A DNA stretch of 39,683 nucleotides from a virus (lineage: Duplodnaviria; Heunggongvirae; Uroviricota; Caudoviricetes): the IMG/VR virus record IMGVR_UViG_2886169441_000004; one strand, given 5' to 3'. Positions 1,599 through 30,701 of this stretch are shown in pieces. Numbering within the stretch: position 1 is the first letter of the stretch; every line of letters starts with the position of its first letter. Both the position numbers and the translations under genes were made by a program. The notes under the pieces were generated by a model. The model made no database searches. It was not told the origin of the DNA and saw only the letters and a list, made by a program, of their open reading frames with translations.

Positions 1599-1739
1599 TT
1601 ACTGCTTACACTGTAAGAACGCCGCAAACTCCGCTCCCCAGAAACTCATCCGTATTTCACACAGCGAACCGTGCAGCATCCAGATGATGAGGATTGCCGT
1701 CACGCAGAATGTGATGGCCGTAAGCGATTTTTGCGACAT
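1599..1739 (-). CDS. candidate small hydrophobic protein, 46 aa (MSQKSLTAITFCVTAILIIWMLHGSLCEIRMSFWGAEFAAFLQCKQ)
   Basis: Manually translated minus-strand ORF below the track cutoff; ATG preceded by AAGGAG at about 8 nt spacing; predicted single transmembrane segment. Confidence 0.3.
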   Translation of the reverse strand: MSQKSLTAITFCVTAILIIWMLHGSLCEIRMSFWGAEFAAFLQCKQ

Positions 1740-4683: not shown

Positions 4684-5195
4684 TGGCTGTACCAAAACAT
4701 CTTCGCTTTTTTACGTTGTTTGTGGATGGTGAAAACGAAGTGGGTAAAGTGACATCCGTCACGCCGCCCAAACTGACGCGCAAAACCGACAGCTATCGTG
4801 GTGGTGGCATGATGGGAGCAGTAAGTATTGATCTCGGTCTGGACGACTCCGCGCTTGATGCGAGCTTTGTCATGGGGGGAGCTGTTCGTGCACTGTTCCT
4901 TAAGTATGGCGGCACGATTGACGGCACGCTGCTGCGTTTTGCGGGTGAATATTACACCGATGCAGAAAGCGATCTGTATGAAATCGAGATGCGCGGGCGT
5001 GTGACGGAAATTGATATGGGGGAGGCCAAACAGGGCGAAGCCACATCACACACTTACGCTGTCAAAAACACCTACTACAAGCTGAGCGTTAACGATCGCC
5101 CGCTGTGGGAAATCGACCTGTTGAACCACATCTACCGGAAGGACGGCAAGGACATTGTGCCTGACCGCATTCGTTCCGCGCTTGGGCTTGGCTGA
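4683..5195 (+). CDS. FII: tail tube protein FII
   Basis: 170 aa immediately after FI with a TGATG stop/start overlap; N-terminus MAVPKHLRFFTLFVDGENEVGKV is typical of P2 FII. Confidence 0.9.
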   Translation: MAVPKHLRFFTLFVDGENEVGKVTSVTPPKLTRKTDSYRGGGMMGAVSIDLGLDDSALDASFVMGGAVRALFLKYGGTIDGTLLRFAGEYYTDAESDLYEIEMRGRVTEIDMGEAKQGEATSHTYAVKNTYYKLSVNDRPLWEIDLLNHIYRKDGKDIVPDRIRSALGLG

Positions 5196-5250: not shown

Positions 5251-5625
5251 ATGAAAGATATCGATACTGAAACCCGGAATAACACCGTAGCGGATGATGT
5301 GACGTCAGGTGAGGATATGGCTGTCGAACGTGGTGTAAAACTTTCCCGGCCAATTGAGCGTGGTGCCGAAAAAATCACATATGTGGAGATCACCGGGGCT
5401 ATTGAGCAGGCGGGATCCCTGCGTGGTCTGTCGCTGTCTGATGTGCTGAATCTGAAAGCGGATACCATGTTCACGCTGTTGCCTCGCGTGACCTCGCCAC
5501 GACTGGATGAAGTGATGATTAAAAAAATGTCGTCACGCGATTTTATTCAGTTGTGCGCTGTGGCTGTAAATTTTATGAGCGAGCCAGACTCTGGCGCGAA
5601 GAGCGTGCAGGAGACGGCAGCGTAA
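5251..5625 (+). CDS. E: tail assembly chaperone E
   Basis: 124-aa ORF between FII and the tape measure gene; AAAAGGAG Shine-Dalgarno upstream; position and size fit P2 gpE. Confidence 0.8.
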   Translation: MKDIDTETRNNTVADDVTSGEDMAVERGVKLSRPIERGAEKITYVEITGAIEQAGSLRGLSLSDVLNLKADTMFTLLPRVTSPRLDEVMIKKMSSRDFIQLCAVAVNFMSEPDSGAKSVQETAA

Positions 5626-5789: not shown

Positions 5790-8583
5790 CATCCGGGTCG
5801 CTTTCAGCGCCGTTGACAGGCTGACCCGGCCTGCCGAAAACGCCCGCCGCCTGATGGGGCAGTTTGGTGACTCCATTCAGCGAACGCAGGGGGCGATCAA
5901 AAATCTCGAGCGTCAGGCGCGTTCATTTGAGCGCGCCCGCGACGCTGTCAGTAAAGCGGATGCGGGTATCGTGAAAGCACGACGCCAGCTTAACGCCCTT
6001 AATCAGTTACAACGCACGGGTACAGTGCTCAGCGAAAAACAACAAAAGCTGATGCAGCAGTTAAGCACCCGGCTTGAACGCCTGAATGAATCGCGCACAC
6101 GGGAAATTCAGAAAATGCGGGAGCTTGGCGGAGAACTGAAACGCCACGGCATTTCCCTGACAGGCAGCGATAACACCATCCAGCAGGCCATCAGACGCAC
6201 CGAACAATACAACAACCAGCTTGAACGCGAACGGCAGGCGCTTGCGCGTGTAACGCAGGCTCGTGAGCGGTATTCGCGCGCGCAGGAAACCGCGGGAAAA
6301 CTGAAAACAGGTGGTGCGCTGGCAATTGGTGCGGCAGCGGCGGGCGGCTATGCTGCCGGGCGTTTTTTGCAGCCCGCGATCGGGTTCGGCAAAGAGATGT
6401 CCCGCGTTCAGGCGCTGACGCGAATCGACAAAAACAGCCCGCAGTTTAAGGCGCTGCGTGAGCAGGCGTTAAAACTTGGCTCTGAAACACAGTTTACTGC
6501 GAGTGATGCCGCCAGTGGGCAGAGCTTTCTGGCAATGGCTGGTTTTACTCCGCAGGCCATTCAGGCCGCATTGCCCGGTGTTCTTAATATGGCGCTGGCA
6601 GGTGGCGTCGAACTCGGCGAGACGGCTGATATAGGCTCCAATATCCTCACACAGTTCAACCTGACAGCCGATCAAATGGACCGGGTTGGCGATACGCTGA
6701 CAGCGGCATTCACCCGGACCAATACTGATTTACGCGCGCTGGGCGAAACCATGAAGTATACCGGTCCGGTTGCCGCAAAACTTGGTATCAGTCTTGAAGA
6801 AGCGGCAGCCATGGCCGGGATGCTTGCCAATAATGGTCTTCGTGGAAGCGATGCTGGTACGGCCATGCGCGCAAGTCTGTCCCGCCTTGCATCACCGCCA
6901 AAAGCTGCGGCTGATGCGCTGAAAGAGCTGGGGGTGTCAGTTGCTGACGCCAGAGGCAAAATGCGCCCGATGGAGGATGTGCTGCTTGATCTCTATAAGG
7001 CGACACAAAAATACGGACAGGTGGACCAGGTTTCCTTCTTCAAGGACATCGCCGGAGAAGAGGCGTTCGTTGGTTTGCAGACGCTTGTTGCGGCGGCTGG
7101 TTCAGGAGAGCTGCAAAAACTGACCAGAGAATTGCAGGGGGCAAGGGGAGAGGCCGATCGCGTTGCAAAAGTAATGGCCGATAATCTTGATGGGGACCTG
7201 AAAAATCTCGACAGCGCATGGGAAGGTCTTCGTATTCGCATCAGTGATCTGGTTGACGGTCCGCTGCGTTCTGTCACGCAGTGGCTCACGCGGGTGCTTG
7301 AAAAAATCACCTCGCTGGCGCAGGCCCATCCGGTACTGACGCGCCAGCTACTGATAGCAGGCGGTGCGTTGCTGGCAATGACTGCAACGGTTGGCTCGTT
7401 GTCGCTGGCTATTGGTGTGCTTGCTGGCCCGCTGGCAAAACTGCGTCTTGGCTTTTCCCTCCTGACCGGTTCAATGAATGCTGTCAGACTCCTGCCAGCA
7501 CTATGGGGAATGGTGACGGGTTCCGTTTCGTTACTGGGGGGCGCTATCGGGGCGTTGTTCAGTCCGGTCGGCCTTATCGTGGCTGCGCTTGCCGGAGCTG
7601 CCGTTCTCATCTGGAAATACTGGGATCCCATCAGGGCATTTTTTGCCGGGGTGTTCAGCGGGATTATGGAAAGGCTGACCCCGTTGCGCGAAACCTTTGA
7701 ACGGTTTGGTCCTGTTTTTGACGCAATCGGGAGTGGGATCAGCCAGGTGTTTAACTGGTTTAAATCGCTGCTGTCTCCGATGGAGTCCAGCAAGGAAACT
7801 CTGGATAAATGTACCAGTGCTGGCGAGATATTCGGTAACGTTCTTGGCGGTGCGTTACAACTTGTTCTGACACCTGCAAAAATGTTGCTGGATACGCTGG
7901 CGTGGATACTTGAAAAGCTTGGTGTGCTTCCGGATGAAGCGGAAAGGGCGCGCAAGAAAATCGAAGACGCACAGCGTGCGGCCATTCTTCAGGACAAGGT
8001 TGCCTTGCTTCAGGGGGACCTGGCGAAAATCAATCCGCCGAAGCCTGTGGAAAATGGCAATGGCACCGGAGGTGATAACCCCAAAGACAATAAACCGCTC
8101 ACAGACAGCAATACCGGTACGCTGCGCAGACTCAGCAAAATTGCTGATAACACAGGTAAGCTGGTTGAGGAGACGAAAAAACGCATTGGCCCCGGCGATA
8201 TTGTCTTTAAAAACCTGCCCCGAGCACTTGCTGTTCGTGGGGAGTGGCAGGAGCGGAAGATTGCGCAGGTCAGTAAGCCTGCCCCCGCAATTAATATCAC
8301 ACCCGTGGTCCCGGCTCCGCTGCCTCCGGCGCTGGTCCCTGTTGTTGCGGCCAGCTCCCGCCCGGTGGCGGAGGCTATACGATCTCCAGTGGCATCAGTT
8401 CCTGTAACTTCCCGTAACCGGGAGCCTGTTGCCTCCGGATTTGGTGGTGAAATTCATGTTCATCTGCATAACGTTGTTACGCAGAATCCCCGCGAACTGG
8501 CGAAACTGGTCGGTGAAATGGTCAGGGCAGAAATGGAACGGCGCGCCCGTGCCGGGCGTGGCAGTTTTTACGATAAAGATTGA
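5776..8583 (+). CDS. T: tail tape measure protein T
   Basis: Very long ORF (up to 947 aa from 5740) with Ala/Gly/Leu-rich coiled-coil and hydrophobic stretches; start probably ATG 5776 (MKTLDIR), with 5740 and 5767 as alternatives. Confidence 0.9.
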   Translation: MKTLDIRVAFSAVDRLTRPAENARRLMGQFGDSIQRTQGAIKNLERQARSFERARDAVSKADAGIVKARRQLNALNQLQRTGTVLSEKQQKLMQQLSTRLERLNESRTREIQKMRELGGELKRHGISLTGSDNTIQQAIRRTEQYNNQLERERQALARVTQARERYSRAQETAGKLKTGGALAIGAAAAGGYAAGRFLQPAIGFGKEMSRVQALTRIDKNSPQFKALREQALKLGSETQFTASDAASGQSFLAMAGFTPQAIQAALPGVLNMALAGGVELGETADIGSNILTQFNLTADQMDRVGDTLTAAFTRTNTDLRALGETMKYTGPVAAKLGISLEEAAAMAGMLANNGLRGSDAGTAMRASLSRLASPPKAAADALKELGVSVADARGKMRPMEDVLLDLYKATQKYGQVDQVSFFKDIAGEEAFVGLQTLVAAAGSGELQKLTRELQGARGEADRVAKVMADNLDGDLKNLDSAWEGLRIRISDLVDGPLRSVTQWLTRVLEKITSLAQAHPVLTRQLLIAGGALLAMTATVGSLSLAIGVLAGPLAKLRLGFSLLTGSMNAVRLLPALWGMVTGSVSLLGGAIGALFSPVGLIVAALAGAAVLIWKYWDPIRAFFAGVFSGIMERLTPLRETFERFGPVFDAIGSGISQVFNWFKSLLSPMESSKETLDKCTSAGEIFGNVLGGALQLVLTPAKMLLDTLAWILEKLGVLPDEAERARKKIEDAQRAAILQDKVALLQGDLAKINPPKPVENGNGTGGDNPKDNKPLTDSNTGTLRRLSKIADNTGKLVEETKKRIGPGDIVFKNLPRALAVRGEWQERKIAQVSKPAPAINITPVVPAPLPPALVPVVAASSRPVAEAIRSPVASVPVTSRNREPVASGFGGEIHVHLHNVVTQNPRELAKLVGEMVRAEMERRARAGRGSFYDKD

Positions 8584-9093: not shown

Positions 9094-9123
9094 AAAACCG
9101 CTAATGGTCAGATTAGCGGTTTT
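9094..9123. terminator. perfect palindromic hairpin between convergent U and invertase genes
   Basis: AAAACCGCTAAT-GGTCAG-ATTAGCGGTTTT with 12-bp arms; A-run on one side and T-run on the other, so it can terminate in both directions. Confidence 0.65.
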
Positions 9124-9712
9124 CATTTTCCTGAGTCTGCCCGGTTGTTTCTTCAGTCTGTATATCGCCTACAGGGTGATAACGATAAATCGTCGATGTG
9201 CCAATGCCGTAAATTATTGCCAGTTGTTTTCTGTCGTGCCCGTTTTTGATTAGCCTTGCTATTTGCTCATGCTGTTCTTTTGTCAGCTTCGGTCGACGTC
9301 CGCCTGTGCGCCCCCTTGCGCGCGCTGCCGCCAGCCCGGCCAGTGTACGTTCAACAATTAATTCACGTTCCATTTCAGCCAGGGCACCCATCACGTGGAA
9401 GAAAAAACGCCCCATTGGAGAAGATGTGTCTATGCTGTCGGTCAGACTGCGAAAATTAATCCCTCGCTCCCGTAGTTCCCCGACGAGAGAAATCAGATGT
9501 TTCATGCTTCGCCCGAGGCGATCCAGTTTCCAGACAACCAGCGTGTCACCTTTTTGAAGGCGCTTTAAAGCGCGTTTTAATCCCGGTCGGTCTGTCTTTG
9601 TCCCGCTTAATTTATCTTCAAATATTTGTTCACATCCTGCACAAACAAGAGCGTTTCGTTGCAGGTCTGTATTCTGGTCATTTGTTGATACCCTTACATA
9701 GCCAATCAGCAC
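9113..9712 (-). CDS. pin: serine recombinase, DNA invertase of the Pin/Hin/Gin/Cin family
   Basis: Near-identical over most of its length to e14 Pin as I recall it (LIGYVRVSTNDQNTDLQRNAL..., catalytic Ser in the RVST motif); start placed at GTG 9712 with GGGAGA upstream, while the track's extended ORF begins at a TTG. Confidence 0.92.
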   Translation of the reverse strand: MLIGYVRVSTNDQNTDLQRNALVCAGCEQIFEDKLSGTKTDRPGLKRALKRLQKGDTLVVWKLDRLGRSMKHLISLVGELRERGINFRSLTDSIDTSSPMGRFFFHVMGALAEMERELIVERTLAGLAAARARGRTGGRRPKLTKEQHEQIARLIKNGHDRKQLAIIYGIGTSTIYRYHPVGDIQTEETTGQTQENENR

Positions 9713-9766
9713 ACTGAATCTCCCGTCCAAAAGCGCAAATCATGCCATGCAGGCCAGAAACGGCCA

Positions 9767-9792
9767 TTATTTAAAACCTCGGTTTACGAGAA
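9767..9792. other. gix/hix-like 26-bp crossover site (TTATTTAAAACCTCGGTTTACGAGAA), invertase-proximal
   Basis: About 21 of 26 positions match the Mu gix site as I recall it; present in inverted orientation relative to the site at 12309..12334. Confidence 0.6.
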
Positions 9793-10284
9793 CTCGGCAC
9801 AAGCGGGGAGAAAATACCGTTACTCAGTACAGCGAATACCTGGACCAATCGACAAACATTCAGCGGTGGCCTTTCTGGGGAACTGTCCGGCAATGCCGCT
9901 ACTGCAACAAAACTGAAAACAGCACGAAAAATTGCTGGAGTTGGTTTTGATGGTTCTAGCGATATTTCAATTAGTGCCAAAAATGTCATGCTTTGCCTCC
10001 GAAAACAGGAATACGTTGCGTGATAACAGTTGGATGGAATGGATAGGGAGCTATAACGCATATTGGTGGTGCATCACGTTAATTTTCATTTATATAAGCG
10101 GAAGTTGTCCTGCGTCAGTTCGGTTAATTATAAAAATGGGGTATTTTTACGTCGCCGTGATGGTTATGGTTTGAAGGTGGTCGATTTTACACCACCACGA
10201 AAACCTTCAGCGGAGATGTTGGTGCATTTATCGGGTCATGAATGTACTGGTATCACATCAGTGCTTGCGTATTCATTGTTGTGA
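9793..10284 (+). pseudogene. alternative tail-fibre C-terminal segment, interrupted by stop and frameshift
   Basis: Manual translation gives a tail-fibre-like stretch (GELSGNAATATKLKTARKIAGVGFDGSSDISISAKNV), then a stop; a downstream frame encodes [18 protein letters not shown], which resembles the minus-strand tip. Confidence 0.5.
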
Positions 10285-10607
10285 TATGACCGGCTTTACA
10301 TGGCGATGGTATCTGTTATGCTATTACGTCCATGTATGCGCTTGTCCCGGAAGCATTCAGTATAGACATAATATACGGGCGTGTTAATCCTCGATTACGG
10401 TACTTGATTCCGTTATGTGAAAGATGTTCGACTGGTTCACAGCAATATATGGATGAACAACTGCGAACATGGAATTTCCAGGCCTCAGGTCATGTATTGT
10501 CGTATTAATGTCAGGATACAGGGTCTAACTCGCGATAATATAGCGGTGTTATTACAGACCGTTCAAAAGTATATAATGGCACTGGTATAATGTAGCGAGC
10601 GTTTAAT

Positions 10608-11114
10608 ATGATGCACTTAAAGAACATAAAGCGGTAAGCTAAAACATGAACAGTATGAGTTAACAAAGAAACACAGTATGGCTTTACTCAGGACGGAAAA
10701 AACTGGTATGAGGAAGAAAAATTTCAGCCAGACACATAAAATGTTACGATGAATAATATTATTGTCGCCATCACCAGAGATGCCTTCACGCTTAATCCCG
10801 AAGGTTTTAGCGTCGTCGAGGTTTCCGATATAACGGCCAATCGTCGGACCGATGATTCCGGTAAGTGGATGTTTAAGGACGGAGCTGTGGTTAAACGGAT
10901 TTATACGGCTGACGAACAGCAACAACAGGCCGAATCACAAAAGGCCGCATTGCTTTCCGAAGCTGAATCAGTCATCCAGCCGCTGGAACGCGCTGTCAGG
11001 CTGAATATGGCAACAGACGAGGAACGCACACGACCGGAAGCATGGGAACGCTACAGTGTTCTGGTCAACCGTGTGGATACGGCAAATCCTGAATGGCCAC
11101 AAAAGCCTGAATAA
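10608..11114 (+). pseudogene. tail fibre assembly protein (Tfa) copy with degenerate 5' end
   Basis: ORF 10749..11114 carries the Tfa core ([43 protein letters not shown]); the expected N-terminus at 10608 reads MMHLKNIKR then stops. Confidence 0.6.
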
Positions 11115-11142
11115 AAATTAAGGCCCGTTATCGGGCCTTGTC

Positions 11143-11674
11143 TCATTCAGGTTGTTCGGGAAATGTTACTGGCAGGCTGGAGGTGTCTGTGGATTCGACT
11201 TTCTGCGCATAGAGCATCCACTCGGTTAATTTTTGTTTATTCTCGTCGGAAATGATGCCCAGCCGTAGCTGTGAGTCCCATAGCTGAGTTTTATCCCTGA
11301 CAAGTTGCAACAGGCTCTGCTTTTCATTTTCCGCTTGTTGCCTCTGCTCTTCCTCGGTATAAGTTCGCTTTACCACTACGCCATCTTTGAACATCCATTT
11401 CCCCGAAATATCAGCCCGGCGATTTGCTGTAATATCAGGTAATTCAACGACGCTTGCGCCTTCCGGATTAATGCTGAAACATCCTTTTCCATACAAATAA
11501 TAACGCCGTTATGTCATAGACCATTTTCAAAGTGTCTGGCTGGAAATTCTTTTTTTCCTCATACCAGTTTTTTCCATCAGCTGAATAAAGCCATTTGATG
11601 TTAAATTGCTTTGTTAGCTGGTATTGCTCTTTTGTTTTAGGGTTGCCAGCAGTAATGTTTTTTAAGTGCATCAT
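11143..11674 (-). pseudogene. tail fibre assembly protein (Tfa) split by a frameshift
   Basis: N-terminal part ([40 protein letters not shown]) at 11468..11674 and the remainder ([31 protein letters not shown]) at 11143..11496 lie in different frames and overlap by 29 nt. Confidence 0.6.
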
Positions 11675-11676
11675 CG

Positions 11677-11952
11677 TTAAATACTCCCCGCGTTATACCA
11701 CGTCCCATTAATGCAATACTGAATTGGCCTTGCCTGTGTTGTATCAATTAATTCATCACGGTTTCCGTTAACTGAACCCGTAACGACATAACCTGACCTG
11801 TCAGACCAGCCGGGACCATTCCATGTCTGAACAGATGACAGACCGCCAAGGCGAATACCTGTAATAAACCTTGAGTTACATTCTGTCCGCGTATATGCAC
11901 CAACATCTCCCGCTGAAGGTTTTCTGTGTGGTGTAAAATCGACCACCTTCAA
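11677..11952 (-). CDS. tail-fibre distal (receptor-binding) C-terminal fragment, not in frame with H
   Basis: 91-aa ORF ([18 protein letters not shown]...[13 protein letters not shown]) resembles e14/lambdoid side-tail-fibre tips as I recall them; separated from H by a stop and about 170 bp of decayed sequence. Confidence 0.55.
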
Positions 11953-12119
11953 ACCATAACCATCACGGCGACGTAAAAATACCCCATTTTTATAATTAAC
12001 CGAATGACGCAGGACACTCCGTCTATATAAAATGAATAATTAACGGATGCACCACCAATATGCGTTATAGCTCCGCTATCCATTCCATCCAACTGTATCA
12101 CCAACGTCTTCCTGTTTTC

Positions 12120-13598
12120 CTAGGCAAAGCACAACATATTGCTTAATTGATATCGGAGAACCATCAAAACCACATGCATTTTCTGCGTTTTAATTTTGCA
12201 GTAGAGCATTGCCGGATAGTTCCCAGAAAGGCCACCGCTGAATGTTTGTCGATTAGTCCAGGTATTCGCTGTACTGAGTAACGGTATTTTCTCCCCGCTT
12301 GTGCCGAGTTCTCGTAAACCGAGGTATTCGATAACGGCAGCAACGGTCGATTTCGCAAGAATATCCCGCCCGACTTTTGTCAGGGTTGCCAGGCTGGCGA
12401 CATCATTCCCCGTAAAATACGGAAACTTGCCTGCCGCAGTAGTAAGTCCGGCCAGCGCCGTCAGGGTGGCATCTTTCGGTTGCTTACCCGCAAGCGCGTT
12501 AGTCATGGTGGTCGCAAAATTCGGGTCGTTGCCCAGCGCCGCAGCCAGCTCGTTCAGCGTGTTCAGTGCATCAGGTGACGAATCTACAAGGGCGGCAATC
12601 GCAGCCATAACGAAAGCCGTGCTTGCGATTTGGGTATTATTCGTTCCCTGTCGCGCAGTTGGTGTTGTTGGCGTTCCGGTCAGTGCAGGACTATTTAAGG
12701 GCGCTTTCTTGTTCGTTTCATCCATTACCGCCTTAACAGCTTTCGATGTCGCGGCCAGTGTTTCAGACGTGCTGTTGGTGGCACTACTGAGCTGGACTAT
12801 CCCTTTTTGTGCCGTCGTGGCGTCCTGAGCGGTATATTTTGCGTTAGCAAGGTCATACGCGGCCTTTACTGCTTTCGGCGTTGCAGCCTGCGTTTCAGAC
12901 GTGCTGTTGGTGGCGCTACTGAGCTGGACAAGGCCTTTTCGCGTCGTGCTGGCATCCTGCGCAGTATATTTACCGTTAGCAAGGTCATACGCGGCCTTTA
13001 CTGCTTTCGGCGTTGCAGCCTGCGTTTCAGACACGCTGTTAGTGGCGCTACTGAGTTGAACAAAGCCTTTTGCGGTCAGCGAGGCGTCCGGGTGACGTCG
13101 TGACTGTTCATGCTCTTTCAGTTTGTCATCCACGTAATCCACTGTGGCCATCACCATGGTGTTATCCACGGTAAGCACCACGGTGGCAGTGCTGGATACG
13201 GTCAGAATGGTGCGAAATGTTTGTGCACGACCGGACCCTTCGGCAACGGCTGGCTTGTAACTTTCGGCAGTATTGCCCACCGCGATTAAATCGCCGTGCT
13301 CATCAAATACACCAATTTCCCGGATCCAGAATCCGCCCGTTTCAGGAGGAATAACCAGCTCCGCAATAATGCGGTTCTGATGTGTTGCGTCCAGGATGAC
13401 GCGATTAACAGTATGTCGCCACACCTCATGCACCAGACGGGTCTGCTTACTGTCTGGTGTGGGCAACGTGCCGCCACCGTCGCCCACGGCCATATGAGTC
13501 AGGCGGACAGGCTTACCATCTGGCGCGGCTGCCTGAGCTAATTTTTTGGCACCCGTATCGGTGATAACGGTTTTAAATTTACGTGTTGTGGTACTCAT
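12120..13598 (-). CDS. H: tail fibre protein H (constant part intact, distal end decayed)
   Basis: N-terminal 300 aa resemble P2 gpH (MAVGDGGG, IIAELVIPPE, HEQSRRHPDASLTAKGF); contains about 2.5 tandem 44-aa repeats; the ORF ends in non-fibre sequence after the crossover site. Confidence 0.85.
   Translation of the reverse strand: MSTTTRKFKTVITDTGAKKLAQAAAPDGKPVRLTHMAVGDGGGTLPTPDSKQTRLVHEVWRHTVNRVILDATHQNRIIAELVIPPETGGFWIREIGVFDEHGDLIAVGNTAESYKPAVAEGSGRAQTFRTILTVSSTATVVLTVDNTMVMATVDYVDDKLKEHEQSRRHPDASLTAKGFVQLSSATNSVSETQAATPKAVKAAYDLANGKYTAQDASTTRKGLVQLSSATNSTSETQAATPKAVKAAYDLANAKYTAQDATTAQKGIVQLSSATNSTSETLAATSKAVKAVMDETNKKAPLNSPALTGTPTTPTARQGTNNTQIASTAFVMAAIAALVDSSPDALNTLNELAAALGNDPNFATTMTNALAGKQPKDATLTALAGLTTAAGKFPYFTGNDVASLATLTKVGRDILAKSTVAAVIEYLGLRELGTSGEKIPLLSTANTWTNRQTFSGGLSGNYPAMLYCKIKTQKMHVVLMVLRYQLSNMLCFA
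12309..12334. other. gix/hix-like 26-bp crossover site (TTCTCGTAAACCGAGGTATTCGATAA) inside the 3' part of H
   Basis: About 22 of 26 positions match gix; its reverse complement is near-identical to the site at 9767..9792. Confidence 0.6.
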
Positions 13599-17067: not shown

Positions 17068-18945
17068 TTATGCTGCGGGATTATTGATTTCCAGCACCAG
17101 GCTGCCGATATCGACGCCGTACGCGGCATTTTTAGTGATATCAGTTAACGTCAGCGCATTCAGCCCCAGTGTCAGACTGTCTTTTATGACCTGGAATGCC
17201 GGGCCAGCCACTCCATTCAGTTTCGGAGTAACCGTGGCACTGCCGGCGGTGAACACCAGCTCCAGCGTCTGCCAGTCGTTACTGTAATTCCCGAACTCGC
17301 CCAACTTTGTGTTTCCTGCTTTCTTGTGATGCATCAGATTCAGTTTGCCGTCTGTGGTCTGGGTGAAGAACGACATCAGGAACGGGTTACCAGTCCCGGT
17401 CATCGCCACGACGTCAGGTAACGCTACATCGGTATACAGATAAATTCCCAGACCGAACTGATTGTTGGTCAGTGCGCCTGACAGTCGAAACTTACAGCTC
17501 AGTCTGCCACCCCGTGTCAGCAGGGAGACTGCGTCATCCACCGGGCGCGTCAGGGACCAGGCTTTATTGCTCTGCTTGGTGATCTTAAATACACCCTCTG
17601 ACAACTGAATTCCGCCATTCTTAATGCTCCAGCCCTGCGCAGCAGCATCTCCGGCTGTCGGCAACAGGGAGATTGTGCGTACGGATGCATCTTCAGACGG
17701 CCCCGATGGCGTGTCGCCGCCGGGCGAGGGTTTGATTTCCGGTGCCTTACCACTGATGAAGGCTAAGGTGCGACCGGCTACGTTCAGAATAGCGGTTGCC
17801 ATACGATCGGGAATAATGCCACGACGCGCCCATGAGCTGAAATGCGTCTGGCGATTTGATGATACCCAGTTTTTGTTCGTTCGGGATGCCGAACCGTAAT
17901 ATCCCTCACTTGCAGCATCCGGATCTTCCGTTGGTGCGTTGGTGGAGGTATTGTTGCCACTACCATCGGTCAGGAACGGCACAAAGAAAACGTTGTCGCT
18001 CTCCCTGTTTTTGTACGCCCCGTAAATGGTGTCGTACTGCGTGCCGTAGGTGTTTTTCCAGTAATACGTCGTGTCACCACAAATCCATGGCACACTTGCC
18101 GCTCTGCCTCCATGACACTGCGTGTTAAACTCGGTAATGTCCGCACGAAACTGTTTCAGCATGGCCGTAAACAGCGGAGGTTGCTGTGAGTACGTAGCGG
18201 CGCTCATGTCAAATTCGCCCTGCATCCAGCATACGGCCAGCAGCATGTTTTTTGGGTTTTTCTGCAATGCGGCCTTCGTGCGCAAAATCAGGTCCTGATA
18301 TAAAGGTTTACCCACACCCCAGCGAGCCGAATCCTGACTGGCTCCTGTGGACTCGCTGAATGTCCCCTCCGCGCCCTGGGTGAATGCCGAACCACCACGA
18401 CAGCATGGAACCAGTAAAATCCCGGCATTCTGTGGAATGTAAGGCAACAGGCGTTTGGCAATATGCAAGCCCTGTCCGACACAGCCATACTGCCCTTTGC
18501 TCAGGTCTGCATTCGGGTGATTCAGTGCGCTCATATCCTGAACATCATGCAGGCAGTGGTCTGCCGGAATGATGTCGTTAAATGCGCATGCTTTACCACC
18601 GGGAGTCACTGTGTTGCGACGGGCCAGTTGCTTAATGCGTGGGTGGGGCGCATCGTAAGAATCCGGCAGCGGCATTCCCTCACCATATGACATGGCATTG
18701 GATTGACCAGCAAGTACCACCACGTAATACCACTCCGGCACGCTGCCGTGCTGGGGGGAATCAGGTGAGATGTCTGTAGTGCCATCGGCCACCATTGCCT
18801 GCATTAGATACCACGGGGTGCCGGGTTCGTAGGCAACCCGCGTCTCCCCCTGAAGATGCCACCCTTTCGCAAGATGTTCATTCACCTTTTGAGTCAGTTC
18901 AGCCTGTGTCATGGCTGTAATCAGTGCAAAGTTCTTACTGGTCAT
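17068..18945 (-). CDS. nanS: NanS-p-like sialate O-acetylesterase moron (N-terminal DUF1737-like region, SGNH/SASA esterase core, C-terminal lectin-like region)
   Basis: 625 aa; SGNH block I motif GQSNAMSYGEG; size and architecture fit prophage NanS-p esterases of E. coli; not part of the canonical P2 gene set. Confidence 0.78.
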   Translation of the reverse strand: MTSKNFALITAMTQAELTQKVNEHLAKGWHLQGETRVAYEPGTPWYLMQAMVADGTTDISPDSPQHGSVPEWYYVVVLAGQSNAMSYGEGMPLPDSYDAPHPRIKQLARRNTVTPGGKACAFNDIIPADHCLHDVQDMSALNHPNADLSKGQYGCVGQGLHIAKRLLPYIPQNAGILLVPCCRGGSAFTQGAEGTFSESTGASQDSARWGVGKPLYQDLILRTKAALQKNPKNMLLAVCWMQGEFDMSAATYSQQPPLFTAMLKQFRADITEFNTQCHGGRAASVPWICGDTTYYWKNTYGTQYDTIYGAYKNRESDNVFFVPFLTDGSGNNTSTNAPTEDPDAASEGYYGSASRTNKNWVSSNRQTHFSSWARRGIIPDRMATAILNVAGRTLAFISGKAPEIKPSPGGDTPSGPSEDASVRTISLLPTAGDAAAQGWSIKNGGIQLSEGVFKITKQSNKAWSLTRPVDDAVSLLTRGGRLSCKFRLSGALTNNQFGLGIYLYTDVALPDVVAMTGTGNPFLMSFFTQTTDGKLNLMHHKKAGNTKLGEFGNYSNDWQTLELVFTAGSATVTPKLNGVAGPAFQVIKDSLTLGLNALTLTDITKNAAYGVDIGSLVLEINNPAA

Positions 18946-27959: not shown

Positions 27960-28457
27960 ATGAACCCAATAACACTACAAATCATCAGCAATGCTATTGT
28001 TCTGCTTGGCGTTTTGGTTGCCATTGGAACCATTATCTACAATGTGCGTACCGCAAAAAAAACTCAAACGGCCAACTTTCTTTTTGAGAGTCGGCAAGAT
28101 ATGCAATATATAGAGTCATTGCATACCCTGAAACAAGTGCATCGTTCAGGCAAATCATTTCGTTCTTATGTTTTTCCTTGTGATGGTTGCATAATAACAG
28201 ATGAAGAAATGGCCGAGCGTCGAAAATTTCAATATATTTTAAATTTTTACGAGCGAGTTGCTGTAAGTATTCGTGAAGGTATTTATGATGAAAAAATGAT
28301 AAAAAGAACATCTTACACAACAGTTGTAGAGACATATGATATTGCCGAGCCATTAATTAAAGCAATCAGAGAAAGCATTAATTCGGATACTACATATCAA
28401 GAATTCGAATGGTTAGTAAGAAGATGGAAAGCTAATCCTTTACGGAAAAACAAATAA
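27960..28457 (+). CDS. cargo protein 1: 165 aa, N-terminal transmembrane helix plus soluble domain, unknown function
   Basis: Markedly AT-rich ORF; N-terminal hydrophobic stretch ITLQIISNAIVLLGVLVAIGTIIY; no similarity to P2 core genes. Confidence 0.7.
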   Translation: MNPITLQIISNAIVLLGVLVAIGTIIYNVRTAKKTQTANFLFESRQDMQYIESLHTLKQVHRSGKSFRSYVFPCDGCIITDEEMAERRKFQYILNFYERVAVSIREGIYDEKMIKRTSYTTVVETYDIAEPLIKAIRESINSDTTYQEFEWLVRRWKANPLRKNK

Positions 28458-28496
28458 TGTTTTACCCTTTAATTTACAAGTAACACAGGGGGAAGT

Positions 28497-29339
28497 GTGA
28501 CACAGAATCCGTTTTCATTTTATGACTTTTTGGGCTATCTAATTCCAGGTGGGTTATTCCTGTTTATCCTTTTTTTGTTTTCTATTGAAATTAACCCTGT
28601 TTATATAGAAGGTATTCTTAACCATATCCTGAAATATAAAGAAATAATAAGTGTATTTATATATGTGGTATTAATCGTTCTATCATATATTTCAGGTCAC
28701 TTCATATCTATTCTATCATCCTGTTTAATTGAAAAATACATGAACAGTAAACTTGGGTATCCTTCAATTTATCTGTTTTCTAAAAGAAGCTCCCTGAAAA
28801 TAAAACGACATAATACTAAGTTCAGTATAGTTAATTTTATTCGTGGAGTTTTTTTATTTCCTGTATCAGCTTTTGATAAAGCAGAACATCATAAAACCAC
28901 ACTGCATTCTATACTTATTAAAGTCTTTTGGCCGCAAATACGAGATGGTTATATAAATGTTTTTTCTGTATCTACGCTATATCGACGTAAGGGCTTGAGG
29001 GGCGATCTTTTTCGCCTTGCTTATCATTATGTGTATGAACATTCTAAAAATCATCAGGTGAAAATGCAAAACTATGTTGCTTTGTATGGTTTTTGTAGAA
29101 ACATTACATTTGTTTTTCTCGCTTCAGTCTGGTTGCTTATGTTCCTGCTCCTTCTATCCTTTTTAATAGATATAAATATCAGACTGTTACCTTTTTGTTT
29201 TCTTCTCTTGTTTTGTATTGCTGCATCCCGAGTATTTTATTATGGTTTTGTTAAGTATTATCGCCGCTATTCTCTTGAGGTTTTAATGGCATTTGCGGTA
29301 CTTCAGCACGATAAAAAAACTTCGGCAATTTCATCATGA
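28497..29339 (+). CDS. cargo protein 2: 280 aa, polytopic membrane protein (about 4 TM helices around a roughly 110-aa soluble region), unknown function
   Basis: AT-rich ORF 39 bp after cargo protein 1; GTG start with GGGGGAAG upstream; two hydrophobic helices at each end. Confidence 0.68.
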   Translation: MTQNPFSFYDFLGYLIPGGLFLFILFLFSIEINPVYIEGILNHILKYKEIISVFIYVVLIVLSYISGHFISILSSCLIEKYMNSKLGYPSIYLFSKRSSLKIKRHNTKFSIVNFIRGVFLFPVSAFDKAEHHKTTLHSILIKVFWPQIRDGYINVFSVSTLYRRKGLRGDLFRLAYHYVYEHSKNHQVKMQNYVALYGFCRNITFVFLASVWLLMFLLLLSFLIDINIRLLPFCFLLLFCIAASRVFYYGFVKYYRRYSLEVLMAFAVLQHDKKTSAISS

Positions 29340-29422: not shown

Positions 29423-29737
29423 TTATTCTGGGAATAAGGTCTGAATATTCTTTTTTATTTTATAAAAATTGCATTCAACTCCGCTAGGCTGATTATCCTG
29501 GTATGTTTCCTTGATGCTAACGGTATTGAAGGGGAGGTTGTCCTCTGGCCATTCGGCCATCCAGTAGGCAAATGCTGGGTTGCGCTTTATGAGCGCTAGC
29601 CCAGCCAGAAAGGCCGCGCGTTGCGCGCGGCTGCGTTCGGAGGCTGGCAGGCTATCGAGGTAATTGCACGCCTCCTGTTCACTCTTGACGGCGGCGGGCT
29701 TCAGATAGAAACTTATCCGTCTGGTTGGTGTCGTCAT
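29423..29737 (-). CDS. parR: ParR-like centromere-binding protein (ribbon-helix-helix)
   Basis: Start placed at the internal ATG; RRISFYLKPAAVKSEQEACNYLDSLPASERSRAQRAAFLAGLAL resembles the N-terminus of plasmid R1 ParR as I recall it; directly downstream of parM. Confidence 0.78.
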   Translation of the reverse strand: MTTPTRRISFYLKPAAVKSEQEACNYLDSLPASERSRAQRAAFLAGLALIKRNPAFAYWMAEWPEDNLPFNTVSIKETYQDNQPSGVECNFYKIKKNIQTLFPE

Positions 29738-29741
29738 TGGT

Positions 29742-30701
29742 TTACTCCTTGTCCATTGCGTACAGCCCATTAACCAGAGCAAACTGTGGCACCCCGTCCG
29801 CGATGAAAGTCGCATTAACTCCGCAGACTTCGCGGATAGCGGGTGCCACAATCTCCGCCCCTCCACCGACAACCATCACCCGCCCGTAACCCGAAAAAAC
29901 CGCCAGCGCGCGGATCACGCGTTGTTTCAGTGTTTCTTCCTTTTCACGAATAACCGCCATCAGGCTGGCGTAATGCGCGTCATTGTGGATGTGCTGGCGC
30001 AGCCAGGCTTCATCATGGCGATGTTCGATAATGGTATTGGCGATGTGGTGACTGGTGCGCATACCGTTAGTGGCCATCACCGACAGTACGGCATCGGCCA
30101 TCAGGGAAACGCCTACGTGTGGATCGCAAAACACCTGGCTGATACCTGCCAGTTGCCCTTGAACCTTTGCCACATCCAGCGTGGTTCCGCCTAAATCCAC
30201 AATCAGCAGGGATTCAAACGGACTCATGTCAGCCAGTGCTTTAAAGCCAGCCGGAATGGATTCAGGCATAACCCGCACGTTACGGATAGTGAATGCTTCG
30301 CCGTTCTGGTATTCCACCGGGCGCATAACGTTCGCTTTTTTGCGGTTGATGTTGGCCATGTCCGGCTGTGCGTTTGTGTCGAAATACTCGCTCAGTGGCA
30401 GGGTGACAACCACATCCACCTCCTGTGGCGTGATGCCTGATTTGACCAGCGCGTGATGAATGGCGATTACATTCACATCGCTGTACTGGTATTGCGTGTC
30501 GGTCGTCTGGACAAAGCGATCGCTAACCGGATCAAAACCATAGCGCACGCCATCAAGCATGTAGTTCGCGGGCTGCATGCCACCGAACGGCGCAGACCAT
30601 TCCGACTTGAAGCTGTTCGGGCTGATGGCGTTGCGGCGTTCGCCATTCTCAGTCCATGCCAGCTTGATGTTGGTGGAGCCGTCGTCGATACAAATTTTCA
30701 T
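29742..30701 (-). CDS. parM: ParM/StbA-like actin-type segregation ATPase
   Basis: 319 aa; N-terminal phosphate-1 motif MKICIDDGSTNIKLAW and later blocks (ISPNSFK, QYSDVNVIAIHHAL, IVDLGGTTLD) resemble R1 ParM. Confidence 0.88.
   Translation of the reverse strand: MKICIDDGSTNIKLAWTENGERRNAISPNSFKSEWSAPFGGMQPANYMLDGVRYGFDPVSDRFVQTTDTQYQYSDVNVIAIHHALVKSGITPQEVDVVVTLPLSEYFDTNAQPDMANINRKKANVMRPVEYQNGEAFTIRNVRVMPESIPAGFKALADMSPFESLLIVDLGGTTLDVAKVQGQLAGISQVFCDPHVGVSLMADAVLSVMATNGMRTSHHIANTIIEHRHDEAWLRQHIHNDAHYASLMAVIREKEETLKQRVIRALAVFSGYGRVMVVGGGAEIVAPAIREVCGVNATFIADGVPQFALVNGLYAMDKE

Follow-up and report, generated by a model that had tools for sequence, protein, structure and literature searches.

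Apparent decay of the invertible tail fiber segment of Escherichia coli ST131 prophage Phi1: very probably a consensus error from two orientations

A prophage that retains a DNA invertase and its crossover sites, and whose tail fiber genes are broken in both orientations, raises the question of whether it can make a tail fiber at all. The window analyzed here is a whole stretch of 39,683 nucleotides, IMG/VR record IMGVR_UViG_2886169441_000004. An earlier sequence-only reading of it had proposed that fiber function may be lost. Our analysis indicates that the apparent decay is very probably a consensus error, made by assembling both orientations of the segment together, and not true gene loss.

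The Phi1 locus and its switch

By its sequence, the window is prophage Phi1 of E. coli ST131, a P88-like peduovirus with serS and dmsA as host flanks. Genome alignment places the counterpart of the whole window at 948556–988444 of strain EC958, and the flanks, about 37 kb, are identical to EC958 save for a single 3-nt shuffle outside 9780–12321. The switch at exactly this locus is already known and its biology is not new. Forde et al. 2014 (PLoS One 9:e104400, PMC4134206) described the invertible tail fiber segment of Phi1 in EC958, with about 50% of the reads in each orientation. An invertible phage-tail inversion, given as 3.4 kb and with Phi1 not named, is also reported from ONT assemblies of EC958 (PMC8235852). 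The switch consists of the following parts in the window:

9113–9712, minus strand: intact serine DNA invertase of the Gin family, 199 aa from a GTG start aligned with Mu gin
9767–9792, plus strand: invertase-proximal 26-bp crossover (gix-like) site TTATTTAAAACCTCGGTTTACGAGAA, found by pattern search, central TC at 9779–9780
9780–12321, no strand assigned: invertible segment; its crossover dinucleotides are 2542 bp apart, compared with 2748 bp in EC958
12309–12334, minus strand: fiber-gene-proximal 26-bp crossover site TTATCGAATACCTCGGTTTACGAGAA, inside gene H, central dinucleotide at 12321–12322
12322–13598, minus strand: constant N-terminal part of tail fiber gene H, 426 codons, intact, with Pfam domains Phage_tail_fib and three Phage_fiber_2

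The open reading frame of the invertase as called by the program begins further upstream, at a TTG at 9730. The protein contains the Pfam domains Resolvase (E 1.4e-50) and HTH_7 and matches the Mu Gin structures 4m6f and 3uj3 (E 3e-100), the first 135 or so residues being nearly identical. The YVRVSTNDQ catalytic serine motif is conserved. The invertase thus has the build of the Gin/Cin/Pin/Hin family of small serine recombinases, an N-terminal catalytic domain (catalytic Ser ~9) and a C-terminal HTH. The DNA of the gene does not differ from EC958. Its first ~330 nt are at least 97% identical to Mu gin, with nt 1–105 completely identical, and the putative Fis-dependent enhancer sis would, as in Mu, lie inside this gin-like 5′ stretch.

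The two crossover sites are the sole pattern matches in the window, where none is expected (100 shuffles). They are inverted, agree at 22 of 26 positions with the central TC in both, and fit the family consensus. The site at 9767–9792 is identical to Phi1_3prime (Forde et al. 2014, Table 3) and aligns with the Mu gix beside gin; that at 12309–12334 is identical to Phi1_5prime of the same paper. The sequence-only reading was right in its identification of a Pin/Gin-like invertase and a Mu-G/e14-P-type segment, bounded by an inverted pair of gix-like sites and carrying mirror-image fiber ends and tfa genes.

The locus is the Gin-type DNA-inversion switch of host range in Phi1. Going by the family and by the parts present here, the invertase, together with Fis bound at the enhancer within the invertase gene, would exchange strands at the two 26-bp sites. 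A segment of about 2.75 kb would flip, fusing the constant 426-codon part of H to either of two C-terminal ends, each with a dedicated assembly chaperone gene downstream.

Broken genes in the window and intact genes in its relatives

Two fiber C-termini, each with its own tfa, lie in mirror image inside the segment, with the constant N-terminal part outside it:

9793–10607, plus strand: Sv′, the spare fiber C-terminal part; its first ~140 bp are the sequence of the other arm and the remainder has many small deletions
10608–11114, plus strand: tfa′, a tail fiber assembly gene of Mu U/U′ type, garbled over its first ~165 nt and otherwise equal to EC958 save for 3 substitutions
11143–11674, minus strand: tfa cognate to the joined fiber end, lacking 1 nt at 11472 and again at 11513; Pfam Caudo_TAP
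11677–12321, minus strand: Sv, the fiber C-terminal part now joined to H; 11677–11924 is clean and 11925–12222 garbled

The breaks that the sequence-only reading reported do stand in the given sequence. H stops at 12120, 67 codons past the crossover, giving a protein of 492 aa; in silico inversion of the segment also yields a truncated fiber, of 506 aa. The plus-strand alternative fiber is interrupted as described, the stretch around 9793–10607 holding no open reading frame above 80 aa. The start of tfa′ is garbled over about 165 nt with its ATG kept, leaving a 121-aa open reading frame from 10749 with Pfam Caudo_TAP, and tfa is split by its two 1-nt deletions. An extended inverted repeat is also present, in pieces, between 9763–10230 and 11892–12338, the blocks being 96–97% complementary. 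The one difference from EC958 close to the constant part of H, at 12255, lies just within the segment, outside that part.

The EC958 genes are intact in either orientation: the fiber is 661 aa in the native orientation and 740 aa when flipped, and the tfa products are 175 and 177 aa. The EC958 counterpart of Sv′ (L001:3720–4613) carries a gp37_C domain. Many other near-identical ST131 strains are likewise intact, with the same 661/740-aa fibers and 175/177-aa tfa products, and both orientations of the segment are found among RefSeq ST131 assemblies. The intact segment is matched at 99% or more by 203 RefSeq records. Most of the segment is present in 225 genomes, of which roughly one in ten appears less than 99% identical to the intact version, a rough estimate that draws on two separate tallies. 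Because homolog alignment shows continuous in-frame genes in near-identical ST131 strains, in both orientations, the proposed loss of the fiber genes finds no support. Intact, EC958-like genes are almost certainly what the real molecules contain.

Pattern of the damage and its possible origins

Inside the segment, the window differs from EC958 by about 210 deleted bases in some 170 small runs and by 54 substitutions. Two garbled zones contain 208 of the deleted bases, the 54 substitutions and 4 insertions, and a handful more differences lie elsewhere in the segment. The deletion runs are mostly of 1 nt (137 of 169). True pseudogenisation, in which both fiber alleles and both tfa genes have decayed and the strain can form no tail fiber, would accord with the stops and frameshifts, and natural decay of prophage tail genes does occur. 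We regard it as very improbable: the ~270 differences are concentrated in about 1.1 kb, against essentially none in the 37-kb prophage and host flanks, and ~170 separate small deletions with hardly any insertion correspond to no known mutational spectrum. The invertase, the crossover sites and about 100 bp adjoining each site are untouched, and no relative among the genomes searched has the garbled allele. Exact-pattern scans of GTDB genome contigs and of IMG/VR gave no match, nor did an exact look-up of the truncated 492-aa fiber.

Base by base, the damaged arms mix the sequences of both intact arms, with gaps at many positions where these differ, and the mosaic is common to the two. At sites where the EC958 arms differ, the first ~37 of the left arm almost all read as the other arm (B); past these, the left arm is a mosaic of A, B, gap and other bases. 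The middle of the right arm repeats nearly the same mosaic. The two arms are 89% alike in the window, compared with 72% for the true EC958 arms. The interior of the segment is in the EC958 orientation and the outer arm ends are flipped, an arrangement beyond the reach of any one inversion between the gix sites. The damage extends as far as L001 4778 on the left side and 5500/5542 on the right side, the points at which similarity between tfa and tfa′ gives out (L001 4696–4775 and 5544–5623). Private transitions in tfa′ at 10786, 10824 and 11035 are not accounted for by the other orientation.

Generic low sequence quality, such as homopolymer errors of long-read or 454 data arising independently of inversion, would fit the predominance of 1-nt deletions, and a homopolymer cause had been suggested from the sequence alone. 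This too we consider highly unlikely. The remaining ~37 kb of the window is free of such errors. By homopolymer length, the deleted bases are distributed like the background, with 110 of 137 falling in runs of 1–2, and the errors are not linked to homopolymers. The errors coincide instead with the sites where the two orientations differ.

A different, horizontally acquired fiber allele might look deleted only when forced onto EC958. Tail fiber ends are mosaic and frequently exchanged, and related segments with about 90% identity are present in Mu, D108, SfMu and P88. The garbled 881 bp at 9880–10760 nevertheless had no match above 83% when 5,426 genomes of E. coli and 50,697 phage records were searched, and its top matches (80–83%) were still the ST131 locus itself. 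The alignment to EC958 is colinear, with short exact blocks between gaps of 1–8 nt, and the garbled sequence has no long open reading frame in any frame. We consider an acquired allele extremely improbable.

The reading that we prefer is a mixed-orientation consensus. The sequenced culture would have contained both orientations at comparable frequency, and the assembler or polisher would have stacked reads of both on one backbone. A chimeric, deletion-rich consensus would result wherever the orientations remain alignable, that is, over the ~500-bp imperfect inverted-repeat arms and on into the conserved 5′ ~160 nt of tfa and tfa′. In a toy simulation, MAFFT and a plurality vote applied to noisy reads rather than a real assembler, mixtures of 45–50% reproduced the deletion-biased garbling, with 145–239 deletions beginning after the crossover; mixtures of 0–30% gave few errors. 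By side, 145 deleted bases are on the left and 66 on the right, the latter including the two 1-nt tfa deletions, an asymmetry that a simple symmetric mixture does not predict.

Other assemblies show the same kind of damage. Seven further ST131 RefSeq assemblies have private mosaics, limited to the invertible segment, that differ from one assembly to the next; one of them switches between A and B at single informative sites, and one, in the flipped orientation, has 149 deleted bases. The clean flanks, the per-base mosaic of the arms and the differing private mosaics elsewhere cannot together be reconciled with natural decay and are characteristic of mixed-orientation error. Clean long-tract chimeras in M45 and AZ167 were considered as true gene conversion and rejected: they also contain indels and PGAP frameshift calls, and we place them in the same artefact class.

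It is extremely improbable that the indels are real, the product of a burst of local small deletions and arm-to-arm conversion in the actively inverting segment of one ST131 isolate. If they were, both fiber alleles would have been destroyed with the invertase and crossover sites spared, implying an unknown mutagenic side-reaction of serine-invertase cycling or of homeologous-arm recombination.

On the mixed-orientation reading, active flipping can scar a finished assembly, leaving clean flanks followed by deletion-rich, arm-homogenised sequence up to the limit of alignability, and annotation pipelines read such a scar as pseudogenes with frameshifts. Among the complete ST131 genomes from RefSeq that were examined, at least seven have private corruption at the Phi1 switch. 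Pseudogene counts and claims of defective prophages drawn from such regions are not trustworthy without the reads. Conversely, the scar can serve to flag an inversion system that is active.

Comparison with known systems

Phi1 of EC958 shares with the window the ~37-kb flanks, the invertase, both 26-bp crossover sites, the mirror order of fiber ends and tfa genes, and a 508-bp imperfect inverted repeat. It differs in being intact both ways, whereas the window segment is 206 bp shorter and shows small deletions and arm mosaics.

The G segment of Mu (S/U and S′/U′; also in D108 and SfMu) is related through the invertase, which is about 88% identical to Gin, through the nearly identical 5′ DNA of gin, and through the gix-like sites adjoining the invertase gene. 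DNA identity is about 90% for both tfa genes and for portions of the fiber ends. Unlike Mu, which is transposable, the phage in the window is a P2/P88-type peduovirus, and its constant fiber part is P2-H-like, with Phage_tail_fib and Phage_fiber_2 repeats. Its inverted repeat also reaches about 500 bp into coding sequence, closer to the C segment of P1. The P1 C segment has 0.6-kb repeats.

Also close are Escherichia phage P88 and Xuanwuvirus (Peduoviridae) and Citrobacter phage phiSM. Their tail and late-control region is 95–97% identical to that of the window and has its gene order, and they share the invertase and two tfa genes; the fiber ends match in part only, with 34–52% of the region covered. 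A defence-system scan of the adjoining cargo genes gave a single weak match. The inverted FI–U tail block was considered as a second rearrangement that might mark a defective prophage and rejected: the order, with ogr and D divergent from FI–U, is native to P88-like phages, and gpD is an intact open reading frame of 413 aa.

Parts and identity of the fibre switch

The ORF listing and repeat finding bear out the parts named in the sequence-only reading: an invertase, inverted gix-like sites, and between the sites a segment with alternative fibre ends and tail-fibre assembly (tfa) genes.

9113-9712, minus strand: resolvase-type invertase gene (ORF listing; Pfam Resolvase and HTH_7)
9767-9792: 26-bp crossover site on the invertase side, inverted relative to its partner (pattern search)
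12309-12334: 26-bp crossover site on the side of the tail-fibre gene H, inverted relative to its partner (pattern search)

The 26-bp pattern has two matches in the window, exactly these sites, and none in 100 shuffles. The 2.5-kb segment between them carries remnants of two fibre C-termini and two tfa genes in mirror image. The invertase exhibits ~88% identity to Mu Gin, with the catalytic domain nearly identical, and its gene matches Mu gin DNA at 97% identity or more over the first ~330 nt. Mu gix aligns with the site adjoining the invertase gene, and the G segments of Mu, D108 and SfMu display ~90% identity to parts of the window segment. The constant part of H contains three tandem 132-bp repeats (12730-13089, 75-83% identical, from repeat finding) that encode three Phage_fiber_2 repeats, an ordinary fibre feature.

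The window aligns end to end with nt 948556-988444 of E. coli O25b:H4-ST131 strain EC958, a span comprising serS and then a P2-type prophage up to its integrase. Phage P88 and other Xuanwuvirus members are 95-97% identical to the window in the tail region and have their genes in the same order, with gpD, an intact 413-aa ORF, diverging from FI-U. The same locus was described as prophage Phi1 of EC958, with an invertible segment of 2773 bp bounded by these same two 26-bp sites, which sit inside a 508-bp imperfect inverted repeat of 77% identity; EC958 PacBio reads at the segment were ~50% in each orientation (Forde et al. 2014, PMC4134206). A 3.4-kb invertible phage-tail inversion, with Phi1 not named, was also reported for EC958 nanopore assemblies in the MicroPIPE study (PMC8235852). 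We therefore identify the locus as the known Gin-type host-range switch of the ST131 prophage Phi1, probably an active one. Its parts and homology are present in the window, and we infer the inversion mechanism from the family and from Forde et al. (2014).

Broken frames and their distribution

In the sequence as given, the H frame runs from 13598 to 12120 and stops 67 codons past the crossover. The fibre is 492 aa, or 506 aa after in silico flipping of the segment, still truncated. The plus-strand spare fibre end has no ORF above 80 aa in the ORF listing, the first ~165 nt of tfa' (10608-11114, plus strand) are garbled, and the other tfa (11143-11674, minus strand) is split by two 1-nt deletions. 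The early stop, the interrupted fibre end and the damaged tfa genes noted earlier are thus all seen, yet the loss of a complete tail fibre read from them is not supported by alignment to the EC958 homolog, where every frame is open in both orientations (H 661 aa, flipped fibre 740 aa, tfa genes 175 and 177 aa). The intact segment is matched at 99% identity or above by 203 RefSeq records. The apparent decay is very probably a consensus artefact of a culture of mixed orientation.

Base-by-base comparison with EC958 yields 278 differences. Outside the crossover points there is a single one in ~37 kb, the loss of one T and the gain of another 3 nt away (7852-7855). It falls within the tape-measure gene, whose protein has its own accession in EC958 and a common one in other ST131 strains. 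Two zones (9880-10760 and 11890-12230) account for 208 deleted bases, 54 substitutions and 4 insertions; elsewhere in the segment there are a few substitutions and the two tfa deletions. Deleted bases number 145 on the left side of the segment versus 66 on the right, and 137 of the 169 deletion runs are of one base. Generic read errors as the source fail direct tests, since the deletions show no homopolymer enrichment and the rest of the window is clean. A foreign allele likewise fails: across 50,697 phage records and 5,426 complete genomes of E. coli, the garbled 881 bp has no match above 83%. Exact searches for the window's sequence in GTDB genome contigs and IMG/VR, and for the 492-aa fibre, gave no match. 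Three private transitions in tfa' (10786, 10824 and 11035), each of them nonsynonymous, have no explanation in the other orientation and do not occur in the other ST131 assemblies examined; they may be further consensus errors.

Arm mosaic, simulation and other assemblies

Both window arms, the imperfect inverted-repeat ends of the segment, were aligned with the two EC958 arms, A (invertase-proximal) and B (H-proximal). All four are nearly identical for the first ~100 nt inside each crossover site. At the next ~37 informative sites the window left arm is almost all B, the flipped state, and the right arm opposite switches irregularly among A, B, gaps and other bases. Deeper in, the per-base mosaic of these four is almost the same in the two window arms, which are 89% alike versus 72% for the true EC958 arms. 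In the deepest part the right arm matches B alone, and the interior has the native orientation, colinear with EC958. Because flipped outer ends, a native interior and a base-by-base mosaic occur together, a single gix-to-gix inversion cannot be the source, and recombination does not produce dozens of 1-8-nt gaps. Real pseudogenisation fails direct tests on this mosaic and on the confinement of differences to the segment.

The damage ends at nt 4778 of the EC958 locus (L001) on the left and at 5500/5542 on the right, just where the N-terminal similarity of tfa and tfa' ends (4696-4775 and 5544-5623). The footprint is therefore the stretch where a flank-anchored read of opposite orientation is still alignable.

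A mixed-orientation consensus was imitated by a toy simulation, distinct from the real assembler, with 40 noisy reads, MAFFT alignment and plurality consensus.

Consensus errors in the toy simulation by share of flipped reads
0%: 7 errors in total
30%: 31 errors in total
45%: 145 deleted bases, onset past the crossover
50%: 239 deleted bases, onset past the crossover

Near-equal mixtures shortened the consensus by 133-198 nt, and the corresponding left side of the window lacks 145 bases. The toy model shows that a near-equal orientation mixture naturally yields deletion-biased garbling.

Seven other ST131 RefSeq complete genomes (M24, Ecol_542, M45, AZ167, 1446, 1438 and g1-11) were compared. 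Each harbors private mosaics or indels, all within the invertible segment, which PGAP labels as frameshifted pseudogenes. Ecol_542 is in the flipped orientation with 149 deleted bases at positions unlike those of the window, A and B alternate at single informative sites in strain 1438, and in M45 and AZ167 both arms are B-type over long tracts. Members of a single recent clone could not have evolved, strain by strain, different dense sets of lesions at one 1-kb spot amid identical surroundings. By a rough estimate from two tallies (225 genomes at 80% coverage or more, 203 records at 99% identity or more), some 10% of the complete genomes with the segment appear to lie under 99% identity to its intact form. 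The corruption looks like a recurrent database artefact in ST131.

Other genes of the prophage

A 625-aa protein (17068-18945, minus strand) with DUF1737, a sialate O-acetylesterase-like SASA domain and DUF6645 is placed between the lysis and tail genes and resembles prophage NanS-p-type esterase cargo. The region at 27960-29339 (plus strand) and 29423-30701 (minus strand) holds a DUF4760 protein followed by a 280-aa protein, the latter with a weak PADLOC match to Csx27 (E 1e-5) and nothing more. Adjoining these genes inside the prophage is a ParM/StbB-type partition pair; the region is possibly a hotspot for accessory or defence functions, and the pair may be plasmid-like segregation genes. 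In the EC958 annotation, a Hok/Gef family toxin gene (~1599-1739, minus strand) adjoins ogr at the serS-side end of the prophage.
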